Shown: positions 27,075 to 53,813 of the stretch, piece by piece
Layout of the letters: each line of letters opens with the position of its first letter
Position numbering within the stretch: position 1 is the first letter of the stretch
Origin: Syntrophaceae bacterium
GTDB taxonomy: Bacteria > Desulfobacterota > SM23-61
Direction of reading: 5' to 3'
Assembly (NCBI GenBank): GCA_013388675.1
Contig: JACAEW010000169.1
Span: 115 to 64,114, forward strand
Length of the DNA stretch: 64,000 nt
The notes under the pieces: generated by a model
Seen by the model: only the letters and a program-made list of their open reading frames with translations
Databases searched by the model: none
What the model was told of the DNA's origin: nothing
Program-made: the position numbers and the translations under genes

Positions 27075-28382
27075 ATGGGTAAGAGGTCTTTCTGCGCTTT
27101 CTTTTTTCTGGGGCTTTTTCTCGCCGGCGTTCTTTGCTCTCTGCTGCCCGGGTTTCTTCCGGCCCAGGAAAAGCAGGTCAACATCCTAAAGATCAACGAC
27201 GCCATCACCCCGGCGATCGCGGATTTTATTAGACGGGGCATCGAACAGTCGGTCAAAGACCGGGCGGAGTGCTTGATCATCCAGATGGATACCCCCGGGG
27301 GGCTCGACCTCTCCATGAGGGATATCATCAAGGATATGATGAACGCCGACATTCCCATCGTGGTCTATGTGGCCCCCAGCGGAGCGAGGGCGGCATCGGC
27401 CGGCGTTTTCATCACCCTGGCGTCCGACATCGCGGTCATGGCTCCCGGCACGAATATCGGGGCCGCCCACCCGGTCGCCATGGGGGGAGGAAAGATGGAC
27501 CGGACCATGGCCGAAAAAGTGGTGAACGACGCCGTGGCCTACATCGAATCCATCGCCGAAAAAAAAGGAAGAAACGTGAAGTGGGCGGCCAAGGCCGTGC
27601 GGGAGAGCGTTTCCATCACCGAGACCGAAGCCCTGAAGATCAAGATTATCGATCTCATCGCCAAAGACGTGGATGACTTGCTGGCGAAAATCGACGGCAA
27701 AACCGTGGAAAAGCCCAAGGGCAAGATCAAGTTGGCCACCAAGGGTTTGAAGACCGCCGTGGTCGAGATGGGCTTCCGGGAAAGCTTCCTGGCGACCCTG
27801 AGCAACCCCAACATCGCCTACATTCTCATGATGATCGGCCTGGTGGGGCTCTATTTCGAGCTCTCCAATCCGGGGGCCATCTTCCCGGGGGTCATCGGAG
27901 GAATCTGCCTGATCCTGGCTTTCTTCGCCTTCCGGACTCTCCCGGTCAACTATGCGGGGGTGTTGCTGATTCTATTGGGGGTCTTTCTATTTATCGCCGA
28001 GCTGAAGGTGGCCAGTTATGGACTCCTTTCCGTGGGGGGAATCATCTCCCTGGCCTTGGGCTCGATCATGCTCTTTGATTCCCCCCTTCCCTATCTGCGG
28101 GCCTCCCTGGCGGTCATTCTCCCCACAGTTCTGGTAACGGCGGCTTTTTTCATTCTGGCCGTGGGTTTTACGATCAAAGCCTACCGGGCGAAGCCGGCCA
28201 CGGGAGCGGAGGGTCTGGCGGGGGAGGCGGGAAAGGCCGCCACGCGCATCGCGCCGGAGGGCAAGGTCTTCGTCCACGGGGAGTTCTGGAATGCTTACAG
28301 CGACAAGACCATCGAAGAGGGGGAGAAGATCCGAGTGGTCAAGGCGGAAAATCTCCGGCTGAAGGTGGAAAAGCTCACCTAA
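27075..28382 (+). CDS. NfeD-family membrane-bound serine protease (ClpP-class)
   Basis: N-terminal ClpP-like domain (ARAASAGVFI), central TM bundle, and C-terminal NfeD OB-fold (GKVFVHGEFWNAYSD). Followed by an SPFH gene. Confidence 0.8.
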   Translation: MGKRSFCAFFFLGLFLAGVLCSLLPGFLPAQEKQVNILKINDAITPAIADFIRRGIEQSVKDRAECLIIQMDTPGGLDLSMRDIIKDMMNADIPIVVYVAPSGARAASAGVFITLASDIAVMAPGTNIGAAHPVAMGGGKMDRTMAEKVVNDAVAYIESIAEKKGRNVKWAAKAVRESVSITETEALKIKIIDLIAKDVDDLLAKIDGKTVEKPKGKIKLATKGLKTAVVEMGFRESFLATLSNPNIAYILMMIGLVGLYFELSNPGAIFPGVIGGICLILAFFAFRTLPVNYAGVLLILLGVFLFIAELKVASYGLLSVGGIISLALGSIMLFDSPLPYLRASLAVILPTVLVTAAFFILAVGFTIKAYRAKPATGAEGLAGEAGKAATRIAPEGKVFVHGEFWNAYSDKTIEEGEKIRVVKAENLRLKVEKLT

Positions 28383-28475
28383 ACAGGCTAGAATATCCGC
28401 CGGTAGCAGAACCAAACTTTTTGAGCATCTTTTTGCGGCGGCATGATCGGTTATAAATTACAACAGGAGGGTACA

Positions 28476-29294
28476 ATGATTCCATCTCTTTCGTTTTTAG
28501 TCCTGGTGATTCTGATCCTCATGATCCTGGCCAGCGCGCTGCGGATCCTCAACGAGTACGAGCGGGGGGTCATCTTCCGCCTGGGCCGCATCCGCACCGT
28601 GGGAGGAACCCCCACCCCCAAGGGCCCGGGCTTGATTTTCCTCATTCCCGTGGTGGACAAACTGGTCAAAGTCAGCCTGCGGACGGTGACCATGGACGTG
28701 GCCCCCCAGGACGTTATCACCCGGGACAACATCTCCATCAAGGTGAACGCGGTCATCTACTTCCGGGTCATGGACCCCATCCGGGCGGTCATCGAGATTG
28801 AAAACTACCTTTACGGAACTTCTCAGCTGGCTCAGACCACCCTCCGTTCGGTATGCGGCCAGGTGGAACTGGACGACCTTCTCTACCAGCGGGAAAAAAT
28901 CAACCTTCAACTCCAGGAGATTCTGGATAAGCATACCGATCCCTGGGGAGTCAAGGTAACCGCCGTGGAAGTAAAGGCCATCGACCTGCCCGAAGAGATG
29001 CGTCGGGCCATGGCCAAGCAGGCCGAGGCCGAGCGTGAACGGCGGTCCAAGGTCATCCGTGCGGAAGGCGAGTTCCAAGCCGCGGAGAGATTGAAGGACG
29101 CCGCGGTGATCATCGCCGTCCATCCCATGGCTCTGACCCTGCGCTACCTTCAGACCCTGACCGAAGTGGCCACGGATAAGAACTCTACCACCATTTTCCC
29201 CATCCCTATCGACCTGATCAAGCCTTTCTTAAAGCTGGCCGAGCGGGCGGAAATGAACGCGGAGCGGGTGGAAAAGGGCAAGGAAACGAGCTAG
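28476..29294 (+). CDS. SPFH/band-7 (stomatin-like) protein
   Basis: [17 protein letters not shown] and later an A/E-rich coiled coil ([13 protein letters not shown]). Start set to ATG 28476, after AGGAGGG. Confidence 0.85.
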
Positions 29295-29325
29295 ACACCA
29301 GCCTCCCAGCATCAGCGAAGGAAAA

Positions 29326-29362
29326 GGATGGGGCTCAGAGAATTGCGCCCCATCCTAATTTT
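29326..29362 (+). terminator. Rho-independent terminator of the nfeD-SPFH operon, with its T-tract interrupted by the MITE
   Basis: ggatggggc-loop-gccccatcc followed by taatttt. The uninterrupted run ctaatttttt reappears at the far end of the insertion (29719-29728). Confidence 0.5.
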
Positions 29363-29718
29363 GGGTCTTCTCCCAATCGAGTGGGTGCTTGAGGAAGATT
29401 TTGAGCTTCCCGGGTCTACCCCTGCCGAAAGAGAGTTGGCCGGGCCCAGGGCGGCATCCCGCCCGGGGCAGGACATCCTGAGGCAGCGGTTCTTCCATCG
29501 GGTCGCGTCGGAAATGAATTAGGTTGTCCCTGTTTAAGCTGGGATTGCGTTTTAGGCGAAGGGTTCGGGGACCGGTGCCTTGCGGAGGCCGGGCCAGCGC
29601 TCCGGGACTCCGGATTTTTCCTGCCGAGGCTGTCCCGCCCCGGACGGGATGCCCACCTGGGGGCCTGTGCGATGGAGTCGTTTTCTCCCTTCTTACCCAC
29701 TCGATTGGGAGAAGACCC
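29363..29718. mobile_element. 356-bp MITE-like non-autonomous element
   Basis: Perfect 24-bp terminal inverted repeats: GGGTCTTCTCCCAATCGAGTGGGT (29363-29386) and ACCCACTCGATTGGGAGAAGACCC (29695-29718). Flanked by the direct repeat CTAATTTT (29355-29362 and 29719-29726). The interior arms are also inverted copies (ggcatcccgcccggggcaggaca vs tgtcccgccccggacgggatgcc). No convincing ORF. Confidence 0.6.
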
Positions 29719-29911
29719 CTAATTTTTTATGACTCCTTCTTTTGATTTATTTCAACCGCAGAGCCCCCAGAGAACGCCGGCATAAGCCAACAAATCGGCC
29801 CCGAAAGCCGGAAGGAATAACCGCCTTTGAATTCGTTCCCCCCGTTTTCATCGGCAGTATTGTTTTTTCCCGGTTCGACCTTTTTCGATTGAAAGCATCT
29901 TTCCGCGTCCC

Positions 29912-31126
29912 TTGCAACCCCTGTGGCGGAAGTCTTTTGTGGAACCCTGGAAACGAAATCTATACAGCCTTTGGGCGGTCGAGTTCCTGGCCGTTCTGGG
30001 AATGGCCTTGGTCCTTCCCTTTCTACCGTTTTACATCCGGGAACTGGGAGCGGGGGACCTGGAAGAGGTGAAAAGGTGGAGCGGCCTGATTTACGCCGCC
30101 CCCTTTCTTTTGGCCGTTTTTACGGGTCCCCTTTGGGGTTGGGTGGGAGACCGCTACGGCCGGAGGATGATGCTCATCCGGGCCATCTTCGGCTTTGCCG
30201 CTACCTCCTTTCTAATGGCCTTCGCCCAGACCGTTACCCAGCTTTTCCTCTTTCGCCTCGTCCAGGGCGGAGTAGCCGGGTTTATCGCGGCTACCCTGGC
30301 CATCGTGGCTACGACCACCCCACGGGAACAAATGGGTTATGCCATGGGAATCCTCCAGACCTCCCTGACGACCGGGGGGATCATCGGGCCCCTCGTGGGC
30401 GGATTCCTGGCCGACCTGATCGGATACCGAAATATTTTTTTTCTCACCGGCGGGTTGGGTTTCCTGGCCGGGATCCTGGTGATTCTCCTGGTTCAAGAAG
30501 ACGGGAAACCCGGAGAAAAAAGGAAATCCTTGGGGCTTTTTTCCAATTACCGTTTCGTCTTCACCTCCCCCATCCTTTCTACGATTTTCGTCGCCAGCCT
30601 GCTCGTCCAGTTGGCCATTATGGGCATTCAGCCGATCCTTTCTCTTTTCGTAGAAAGCCTTTGGTCGAAGGCCGAGAATGTATCCACCATGGCCGGGTTC
30701 GTTTTCGGGGTGACCGGATTTGCCAGCCTGATCGCGGCCCCCTATTGGGGAAAGCGGGGGGACCGGATCGGGTATAGAAAGACGCTCATCATGACCTCCC
30801 TGGCCACGGGAATCTCCTACCTTCCCCAGGGGTGGGCCACCGATGTGTACCAGCTTTTGATCCTCCGTTTTGTCCAGGGCCTCTTTGTGGGCGGCATCCT
30901 TCCCGCCCTTTACACTTTAACCACGCTCAATGCGCCCGATGAGCGCCGGGGGGGTATTCTGGGGATCACCCGGAGCGGTTTGTTGATCGGCAACGCGGCA
31001 GGGCCTATCTCCGGCGGGTTTTTGGCCGCTTCGGTGGGTATGCGCCCGATCTTTTATTTCACCGCGGCCCTGCTCATCCTCGTCACCCTGGGGGCCAACA
31101 GGCTTCTAAAGGACCCCCCCAATTGA
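29912..31126 (+). CDS. MFS transporter
   Basis: 404-aa protein with 12 predicted TM segments. MFS loop motif GWVGDRYGRRMMLI. TTG start. Confidence 0.75.
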   Translation: MQPLWRKSFVEPWKRNLYSLWAVEFLAVLGMALVLPFLPFYIRELGAGDLEEVKRWSGLIYAAPFLLAVFTGPLWGWVGDRYGRRMMLIRAIFGFAATSFLMAFAQTVTQLFLFRLVQGGVAGFIAATLAIVATTTPREQMGYAMGILQTSLTTGGIIGPLVGGFLADLIGYRNIFFLTGGLGFLAGILVILLVQEDGKPGEKRKSLGLFSNYRFVFTSPILSTIFVASLLVQLAIMGIQPILSLFVESLWSKAENVSTMAGFVFGVTGFASLIAAPYWGKRGDRIGYRKTLIMTSLATGISYLPQGWATDVYQLLILRFVQGLFVGGILPALYTLTTLNAPDERRGGILGITRSGLLIGNAAGPISGGFLAASVGMRPIFYFTAALLILVTLGANRLLKDPPN

Positions 31127-51487: not shown

Positions 51488-53341
51488 TTATTTTTTCGCT
51501 ATCGCATCGAATTTGCACACGTCGTAGCAGATGCCGCACTTGATGCACTTGGCCGGGTCGATGGTATGGGGCTTTTTCACTTCGCCGGATACGGCCTTCT
51601 GCGGACACTCGCGGAAGCAGCGATGGCAGCCGGTGCAGAGGTCCTCCAATATCGTGTAGGTGATGAGCTCCTTGCAGACCCCGGCCGGACACCGCTTCTC
51701 CTGGATATGGGCCTCGTACTCGTCCCGAAAATACCGCAGGGTGGAGAGGACCGGGTTTCCCGCCGTCCCCCCCAGGGCACAGAGGGACCCCAAGGTAATG
51801 GCCTCGGCCAGTTCCTCGATCAGGGGGATGGATTCTTCGGTTCCCCGCCCTTCGGTAATGTCGATCAAAATCTCTTTCATCCGGCGCACGCCCTCGCGGC
51901 AGGGGACGCACTTCCCGCACGACTCCTCTTCCAGGAACTTGGTGAAGTACTTGGCCACGTCCACCATGCAGTCGGTCTCGTCCATGACGATCATCCCGCC
52001 CGACCCCATCATGGACCCGGCTTTGGTCAGTTCGTCGAAATCCACGGGCATGTCAATGAGCGACTTGGGAATGCAGCCGCCCGAGGGGCCGCCGGTCTGG
52101 ACGGCCTTGAACTCCTTGTCCTTCAGCATGCCGCCCCCGACCTTGAAGATGATGTCCCGGAGGGTGATCCCCATGGGAACCTCCACCAGACCGGTGTTCT
52201 TGACCTTCCCCACCAGGGAGAAGACCTTGGTCCCCTTGCTCCCTTTCGTTCCCAGGGAGGCGAACCAGTCTGCTCCCTTGTTAATGATCTCGGGAACGTT
52301 GGCCCAGGTCTCCACGTTATTTAGGTTGGTGGGTTTGTCCCAAAGGCCCCTTTCCACCGTGTGGATGTACTTGGCCCGGGGTTCTCCGGCGCGGCCCTCC
52401 AGCGAGGCCATGAGCGCCGAGGACTCGCCGCAGACGAAGGCGCCGCCGCCGCGGTTGATGCGGATATCAAAGTCGAAACCGGAATTGAAGATATTTTTGC
52501 CCAGGAAGCCGTAGGCCCGGCACTGATCAAGGGCGATGTTCAGGTGTTTCACTGCCAGGGGGTACTCGTTCCGCACATAGATATATCCCTGGTTGGACCC
52601 GATGGCGAAGGCCCCGATGATCATTCCTTCGATCACGCTGTGGGGGTCTCCTTCCATGATGGACCGGTCCATGAAGGCCCCCGGGTCCCCTTCGTCCCCG
52701 TTGCACACCACGTAGCGCACGTCCCCGTGAGCCTCCCTGCATGACCTCCATTTCCGCGCGGCCGGAAACCCGCCTCCCCCGCGCCCCCGCAGGCCGGACT
52801 TTTCCACGGTGGCGATGATCTCCTCGGGGGTCATGGAAGTCAGAGCCTTGCCCAAAGCGGCGTATCCGCCGTGAGCGATGTACTCCCGGATGTTGGTGGG
52901 GTCGATTCTGCCGTTATTCCGGAGGGCAATGCGCATCTGGTGCTTGTAAAAAGGAATCTCATCGTGACGGGGGACCTTCTTCTTGCTCTGGGGGTCCTCG
53001 TAAAGCAGGCGCTCGACCGTGGCCCCTTTGACCAGAGTTTCTCCCACAATCTCCGCCGCGTCTTTGACGGCGACCCGCTGGTAGAAGATATCCTGAGGAT
53101 AGATGGTCACCAGGGGGCCTCGTTCGCAAAACCCGTGGCACCCGGTTTTTTTCAGCATCACCCTACCATCCAGCCCCTGTTTTTTCATCTCTTCAGCCAG
53201 GGCCTCGACAACCTGCTCGGCGCCGTTGGAAAGGCACCCGGTTCCGCCGCAGACGGTGACTTCCGGCTGTCCGGGTTTCAACTCCGTCAAAATGGTTTGT
53301 TTCAATTTCTGCAATTCTGGAAGGGTCTTAATCTTTTCCAT
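51488..53341 (-). CDS. NuoF/HydB-like NADH-binding flavoprotein subunit with extra Fe-S domains
   Basis: N-terminal thioredoxin-like [2Fe-2S] domain (CGGTGC...CHGFCERGP), FMN/NADH site [24 protein letters not shown], and C-terminal 2x CxxCxxCxxxC. Start is ATG 53341 (after GGAAGGA) or 53359. Confidence 0.85.
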
Positions 53342-53813
53342 GGGATTTTCCTTCCCCATCCGGTCGGTATTCTTGGACGATCTTATGAATCTGGTCGGCG
53401 GTCACTTTGCCGTAATTTTTCTGGTCCACCCGCACCAGCGGCGCCAGGGCGCAGGCCCCTAGGCAGTTCACCGTTTCCAGGGTGAACTTCATGTCCTTGG
53501 TGGTCCCCCCGGCTTTTACCTCCAGGGTGCGTTCAAAATTCTCCACGAGCCGCTGGCCTCCCCTTAGGTGGCAGGCGGTGCCCAGACACACGTGGACCTC
53601 GTGCTCCCCCCGGGGGACCAGGCTGAACGATTTATAAAAAGTCGCCACGGCGTAGGCCTGGGTCAGGGGTATTTTCAGTCGATTGGCCACCAGGCCGATC
53701 GCCTCTTTGGGAAGATACCGGTATTCCGCCTGAATATCCTGGAAGATGGCGATAAGCCAGTTCTTCTCCCCGTTATATTTGGTGATGATCTCATTGACCT
53801 TCTTCAAATCCAT
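53328..53813 (-). CDS. NuoE/HydC-like thioredoxin-fold [2Fe-2S] subunit
   Basis: [13 protein letters not shown] and [11 protein letters not shown] cluster ligands. 161 aa. Confidence 0.85.

Follow-up and report, generated by a model that had tools for sequence, protein, structure and literature searches.

Insertion sequences of the ISL3 family characteristically duplicate 8 bp of target DNA at AT-rich sites, and their terminal inverted repeats (TIRs) usually start with GGCTCTT. MITEs of the Correia (Neisseria), ERIC/IRU and RUP types are abundant and intergenic, form long hairpins when co-transcribed and often lie beside gene ends. The closest described counterparts of the element presented here are MITEs with ISL3-type ends: an ISL3-derived MITE of 187 bp in Microcystis aeruginosa, in the description of which the 8-bp duplication at AT-rich targets is named as a property of the ISL3 family (PMC11448079), and a MITE of 179 bp in Methanosarcina acetivorans, which occurs in 6 copies and is paired with ISMac21 (PMC3852290). 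Both are short and non-coding, have imperfect or perfect TIRs matching those of ISL3 elements, are flanked by direct repeats of 7-8 bp, fold as stem-loops and are multi-copy.

We analysed an element of 356 bp in a stretch of 64,000 nucleotides (the window), which is part of contig C45 in the draft genome (353 contigs, 5.0 Mb; estimated contamination: 5%) of an uncultured deltaproteobacterial lineage. With the MITEs of Microcystis and Methanosarcina it shares the short, non-coding form, the ISL3-type TIRs, the flanking direct repeats, the stem-loop fold and the multiple copies. It differs from them in being twice as long (354-356 bp), in its copy number (~90 compared with 6 in M. acetivorans), in a TIR that is identical across several phyla, in a conserved internal 35-nt inverted repeat and in an interior unrelated to the insertion sequence. 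The TIR of the Microcystis MITE starts with GGCTCTTCG, and congeners of the window's genome carry GGCTCTTC... variants. A broader resemblance to the Correia, ERIC/IRU and RUP elements may be drawn by analogy; their TIRs, target duplications (TA for Correia) and presumed transposases are different. ISL3-derived MITEs with 7-8-bp repeats are therefore known, and what is new is an unusually abundant family in an uncultured lineage. The first-pass annotation had read the element as a non-autonomous transposon. Our analysis supports this reading: judged from sequence comparison, the element is very probably a MITE mobilised in trans by a DDE transposase of the ISL3 family.

Reading of window positions 29100-30000 and a repeat finder reproduced all coordinates of that annotation (Table 1), including the length of the element, its perfect 24-bp TIRs and the 8-bp target duplication CTAATTTT. 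The repeat finder called the direct repeat as CCTAATTTT, the last C of the right TIR extending the match by chance. The two TIRs match at 24 of 24 positions, and genome-wide 108 of 190 ends are perfect. They start with GGGTCTTC, one base off the usual ISL3 form, and the GGCTCTTC variants occur in copies of the congeners. The interior palindrome was recovered with arms of 35 nt that are 86% complementary. No credible ORF was found in the element, as had been annotated: no frame is open across copies, there is no 3-base periodicity, and comparison of the four internal ORFs with Pfam gave nothing credible. The window contained no transposase, and no sigma-70-like outward promoter was found in or near the element. 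The family thus shows the features by which MITEs are recognised, being short (less than ~600 bp) and without an ORF, with TIRs, a duplication of fixed length, dispersed copies and empty sites.

Table 1. Features of the element and of the surrounding locus (positions in the window)
Feature	Position	Strand	Basis and remarks
NfeD-family gene, first of pair	27075..28382	+	Pfam NfeD_membrane 1.2e-28, NfeD1b_N, NfeD
SPFH/Band 7 gene, the terminator of which was hit	28443..29294	+	Pfam Band_7 1.6e-37
Predicted intrinsic terminator stem-loop 3' of the SPFH gene	29325..29356	+	Inverted repeat; -22 kcal/mol; conserved in G001-G004
Left copy of the target duplication CTAATTTT, 8 bp	29355..29362	.	Sequence and repeat finder
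Whole element, probable non-autonomous ISL3-type MITE, 356 bp	29363..29718	+	92-94% identical full-length copies, on 22 or more further contigs; not in the orthologous spacer of four congeners
Left TIR GGGTCTTCTCCCAATCGAGTGGGT	29363..29386	+	Repeat finder; same sequence as the ends of the L056 insertion sequence (ISL3)
Left arm of the internal 35-nt inverted repeat	29445..29479	+	Repeat finder; 86% complementary to the right arm
Right arm of the internal 35-nt inverted repeat	29627..29661	+	Repeat finder
Right TIR, exact reverse complement of the left	29695..29718	-	Repeat finder
Right copy of the target duplication CTAATTTT	29719..29726	.	With 29727-29728 carries the remainder of the original T-run
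MFS transporter gene, downstream	29912..31126	+	Pfam MFS_1 1.3e-65

The assignment to ISL3 derives from the ends. The exact 24-mer of the TIR was present in MAGs labelled Vicinamibacterales, Nitrospira, Gemmatimonadota, Bacteroidota, Beta- and other Proteobacteria, Syntrophaceae, Desulfobacteraceae and Thermodesulfobacteriota. In one of these sequences (L056:6138-7505), two copies of the TIR bound an insertion sequence of 1368 bp, with CAAACTTT duplicated at both sides. It encodes a transposase of 360 aa with the domains Zn_ribbon_ISL3, HTH_Tnp_ISL3 and DDE_Tnp_ISL3 (Pfam 1.6e-69), which scored 305 bits against the NCBIfam ISL3 equivalog (cut-off: 180). Further versions of 1370-1378 bp were found in one Syntrophaceae and one Gemmatimonadota genome. 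The congener G002 carries an intact version of 1647 bp (G002:C246:3-1649), the 367-aa transposase of which is 78% identical and the TIRs of which have 2 mismatches. The insertion sequences of L056 and G002 resemble the MITE in their identical or near-identical 24-bp TIRs and in having an AT-rich target duplication of 8 bp. Unlike the MITE, they encode a transposase (Zn-ribbon, HTH and DDE_Tnp_ISL3 domains), and the MITE aligns with them over the terminal 25-28 bp only, which rules out that it is a simple deletion derivative of its insertion sequence.

The insertion sequence of G002 exceeds the 1368-bp versions by ~280 bp, which are located after the transposase stop and before the right TIR. 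This additional DNA holds two hairpin-like modules bounded by GGGAGTTATCC...GGATAACTCCC, one of which also occurs in a remnant in the window's own genome (C286:2372-2650). The module may be a passenger structured element.

The annotation had placed an autonomous partner with an 8-bp duplication elsewhere. TIR-matched ISL3 insertion sequences of this kind do exist, but none is intact in the element's own assembly, in which neither tblastn nor a six-frame Pfam search detected an intact ISL3 transposase. The only trace of such a gene (C286:2348-2778) comprises the last 42 codons with an in-frame stop, a TIR with 2 mismatches, and ~280 bp of non-coding DNA between the TIR and the transposase fragment. 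With only a decayed transposase in the assembly, current mobility in this genome is doubtful, and the family is probably now stranded there. A multi-copy insertion sequence may also have been lost from a draft of 353 contigs, in which case the partner would merely be missing from the assembly.

In the proposed mechanism, an ISL3 transposase would bind both 24-bp TIRs and insert the element at an AT-rich site of ~11 bp, roughly nnAATTnn. A staggered cut of 8 bp, followed by fill-in, would then create the target duplication. In this way the copy in the window would have entered the T-run of the nfeD-SPFH intrinsic terminator, after the split from four congeners.

We found 190 matches to the TIR in the draft genome. 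Complete elements within contigs numbered 27 (23 of 353-356 bp and four deletion variants, three of them 160 bp and one 224 bp long), and there were 136 single ends, almost all of which ran into a contig end. Full-length matches to the window's element comprised 22 other copies at 89-94% identity, in addition to ~110 contig ends. Typing of the ends by the 20 bases inside the TIR yielded 101 left and 69 right ends; 15 were too short and 5 were of other types, one of these being the insertion-sequence remnant. Of 706 contig ends, 132 fall within the element. From these contig ends and the count of ends we estimate a true copy number of ~90; the element is not single-copy, and its family is expanded in this genome. 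It is also a major cause of assembly fragmentation and accounts for about a fifth of the contig breaks, as well as for several joins of chimeric appearance. The copies are related in a star-like manner (93% identity between pairs, ~96% to the consensus). In the 160-bp variants, position 107 is joined to position 275; these are paired positions of the inner stem, and the hairpin has evidently been deleted.

Two copies, at C213:9071-9100 and C204:95-124, adjoin nearly the same flank, ATTTGCCG(C/A)TCCC(G/T)TGGGAATGGAGACTTC, which points to insertion in a duplicated or strain-variant region.

A duplication of 8 bp with at most one mismatch flanks 13 of the 27 in-contig copies. Across the genome, 41 of 101 left ends share an identical 8-mer with a right end, compared with 6.3±2.4 expected. 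The remaining 14 in-contig copies lack a matching duplication. For those on C4, C131, C241, C148 and C318, the partner 8-mers were located at the ends of other contigs (C123, C26, C17, C327, C189, C277, C156 and C270). These copies are flank-swapped, either by chimeric assembly or by recombination between copies, and this largely explains the missing duplications. The same pairing of 8-mers can be used to scaffold ~30 contig pairs.

Flank positions 1-11 are ~70-95% A+T, and from position 12 onwards the value is ~40-50%, the genome average being 43.5%. In the orientation of the element, the target consensus is palindromic, with A at positions 3-4 and T at positions 5-6 (roughly nnAATTnn), a tendency which CTAATTTT fits. 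The duplication is thus of the ISL3 type in both its length of 8 bp and its AT-rich target. The 36 nt beyond the duplication gave a mean of -5.3 kcal/mol, compared with -5.8 kcal/mol beside random AT-rich 8-mers, and strong hairpins were present in 8% and 7%, respectively. A preference for terminator hairpins is ruled out, as the flanks fold no better than the random AT-rich controls. In a genome of 56.5% G+C, terminators provide some of the few AT-rich stretches; this, and not recognition of the hairpin, is why they are hit.

Pfam assigned the neighbouring genes to the families given in the annotation (NfeD, SPFH/Band_7 and MFS_1). The SPFH gene has orthologues with 89% amino acid identity in four congeners (G001-G004). 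The MFS gene is syntenic in G001, G003 and G004, where it is adjacent to the SPFH gene; in G002 the two lie on two contigs. Its true start may be a conserved GTG at 29939. The terminator stem (29325/6-29355/6) begins 31 nt past the SPFH stop and has ten consecutive G+C-rich pairs, a mismatch and two more pairs. When the element and one copy of the duplication are removed, the joined flanks read ...GCCCCATCCTAATTTTTTATG, in which the stem is followed by TAATTTTTT, and the resulting ...CCCCATCCTAATTTTTTATG is comparable with ...CCCCATCCTATTTTTTCG in G001. The spacers of all four same-genus genomes are without the element and retain an intact hairpin and T-run: immediately after a perfect stem of 13 bp (AGGATGGGGCCCA...TGGGCCCCATCCT or a close variant) comes TATTTTTT or TTTTTTT. 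The orthologous stem of G001 was flagged as terminator-like in a terminator scan. The conserved hairpin and T-run of the congeners mark the exact insertion point. The joined flanks and the congener spacers together bear out the annotated insertion into the T-tract of the nfeD-SPFH terminator, and we regard it as established that the element entered the T-run of a conserved putative terminator after the split from the four congeners.

The further statement of the annotation that the stem had been parted from most of its U-tract was too strong. The duplication itself includes TTTT, so that the stem retains TAATTTT with four of the six consecutive T's, and the insertion displaced no more than the final two. 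Beyond the element, CTAATTTTTT once more follows a stem, here the 24-bp terminal stem of the element. Given the retained TAATTTT and this terminal stem with CTAATTTTTT, a large loss of termination is not obvious, and the predicted terminator is probably only mildly weakened here. The read-through into the MFS gene envisaged in the annotation is accordingly a weaker possibility than it was made out to be.

Directly downstream of the terminator (29745-29790), the window and all four congeners have AACCGCAGAG-N4-6-CAGAGAAC in common. A second motif shared with the congeners, CTCTGTGGYGRAAGT, lies near the start of the MFS gene (29895-29935) and is partly complementary to the first. These motifs may form a conserved leader structure or operator of the MFS gene.

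Both strands of the element fold as long hairpins, and far better than shuffled sequences (z=-6.5 and -8.2). In an alignment of 17 sequences, the consensus fold has 77 pairs, 17 of which show compensatory changes; the observed covariation score was reached by 0 of 500 shuffles, and slid controls scored ~3 times lower. The inner repeat (helix 3) alone contributes eight compensatory pairs across species, some of them with three pair types. Between species, conservation of the core (columns 81-300) is 0.75-0.89, compared with 0.5-0.68 for the subterminal parts. The left ends of copies also adjoin the 3' ends of genes more often than the right ends do (46:24 compared with 21:26; Fisher p=0.036), but the ORF calls behind this test are crude and the sampling favours left ends (101 compared with 69), and we give this mild co-orientation with flanking genes little weight.

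These observations are what could be expected if the element were primarily a structured RNA or DNA module with a function for the host or for itself, and the transposon-like ends only its vehicle. The covarying hairpin might then act as a Correia-like signal for transcript stability or processing, or as a terminator cassette. Several findings make this distinctly unlikely. A scan of positions 29200-29950 against Rfam at E<=1 returned only noise, the best hit (P15; E=0.38) reaching 17.4 bits against a threshold of 70. Helices 1-3, among them the well-supported TIR and inner repeat, consist almost purely of Watson-Crick pairs and show strand symmetry, as in a DNA palindrome, and on this ground we rejected a strand-specific RNA signal; the strand-specific helices 4, 5 and 8 rely mostly on G-U pairs that were picked by the predictor itself. 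Moreover, the compensatory events come from only three or four lineages and could have been produced by templated correction of a quasi-palindrome. Within the genome, copies diverge about evenly at 2-7% by region (TIRs: 2.7-3.4%; core: 4.4%; inner arms: 2.1-4.1%), so that host-level purifying selection on the core is not seen there. The annotation had named a conserved structured RNA as the competing possibility. Covariation is indeed present in the palindrome, but it matches no RNA family, and because of the strand symmetry and the even decay of the copies it does not replace the transposon reading. In our reading, the palindrome has been maintained in active lineages of the element, either because selection acted on transposition competence or through templated correction of the quasi-palindrome, and it is not a host-selected RNA.

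An intergenic, palindromic and highly repeated sequence also recalls REP/BIME-like or other palindromic intergenic repeats, for which the agent of spread would be a RAYT-type enzyme or recombination and not a DDE transposase. We consider this hardly credible for an element of 356 bp, which far exceeds REP units (20-40 nt, without target duplication), shares identical 24-bp TIRs with ISL3 insertion sequences, and shows 8-bp duplications throughout the family as well as clean empty sites. It is likewise very improbable that the family has been inflated or distorted by metagenome assembly, through strain mixtures or chimeric joins, and that its true copy number is much lower. The fragmented and partly contaminated draft, the half of the in-contig copies whose flanks pair with other contigs instead of with each other, and the excess of left over right ends would all be in keeping with such an artefact. 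However, at least 150 distinct unique flanks were found at the ends, the copies differ from each other by ~7%, and three other, independently assembled congeners contain several to dozens of homologous copies. The copy in the window, for its part, is complete with its two flanks and a perfect duplication, and its empty site has been verified. Mobilisation of a MITE by an ISL3-family transposase thus remains the reading that we favour.

Homologous elements of 333-361 bp and 68-79% identity occur in G002, G003 and G004, and homologous matches were found in G001 too. Their TIRs are the same, though often decayed, and perfect 8-bp duplications flank some of them. A 21-nt core motif was detected only in genomes of the same genus and in one short contig binned as Bacteroidia. 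According to this distribution the core is genus-specific, whereas the TIR crosses phylum boundaries.

A second MITE-like family of ~330 bp has other ends, CTTGCCCACCCCCAG...CTGGGGGTGGGCAAG, and its own internal inverted repeat (L111-L118: G001:C5:~53090-53360 and seven contigs of G004). A 32-bp motif is common to this family and to the window's element (positions 112-143); the family itself does not occur in the window's genome. The shared motif suggests an exchange of core modules among MITE families.

In Nitrospira and other Nitrospiraceae genomes, the same ISL3 TIRs bound an element of 505 bp (L045:5370-5876, L052:2772-3276 and L063:2000-2505). Between internal inverted repeats of 32 nt it carries an ORF of 98 aa with a GIY-YIG domain (Pfam 6.2e-14), and it is a transposase-less cargo element that uses the same ends. 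A 179-bp element in a betaproteobacterial genome (L064:756-934) looks like a deletion derivative of it.

A wider interpretation would combine two proposals: that the internal hairpin is functional and preserved between species through compensatory changes, either as a fold in cis that joins the ISL3 ends or as an RNA signal on the transcripts of neighbouring genes, and that the TIR pair, identical in at least six phyla, is a general shuttle for unrelated cargo. The structured core of the SM23_61 genus, the GIY-YIG nuclease gene of Nitrospira and the paired structured modules in the insertion sequence of a congener would then be examples of such cargo. We hold this combination to be unlikely.

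Our findings leave the general understanding of MITEs unchanged. Any scaffolding or reading of synteny in this uncultured lineage must allow for the repeat. The locus itself represents a clean and dated landing of the ISL3 type in the T-run of a terminator, occupied here and empty in four sister species. The identity of the 24-bp TIR across genomes of Acidobacteriota, Nitrospirota, Gemmatimonadota, Bacteroidota, Pseudomonadota and the Desulfobacterota type points to a widely exchanged ISL3 lineage, which spawned different small elements in different hosts.
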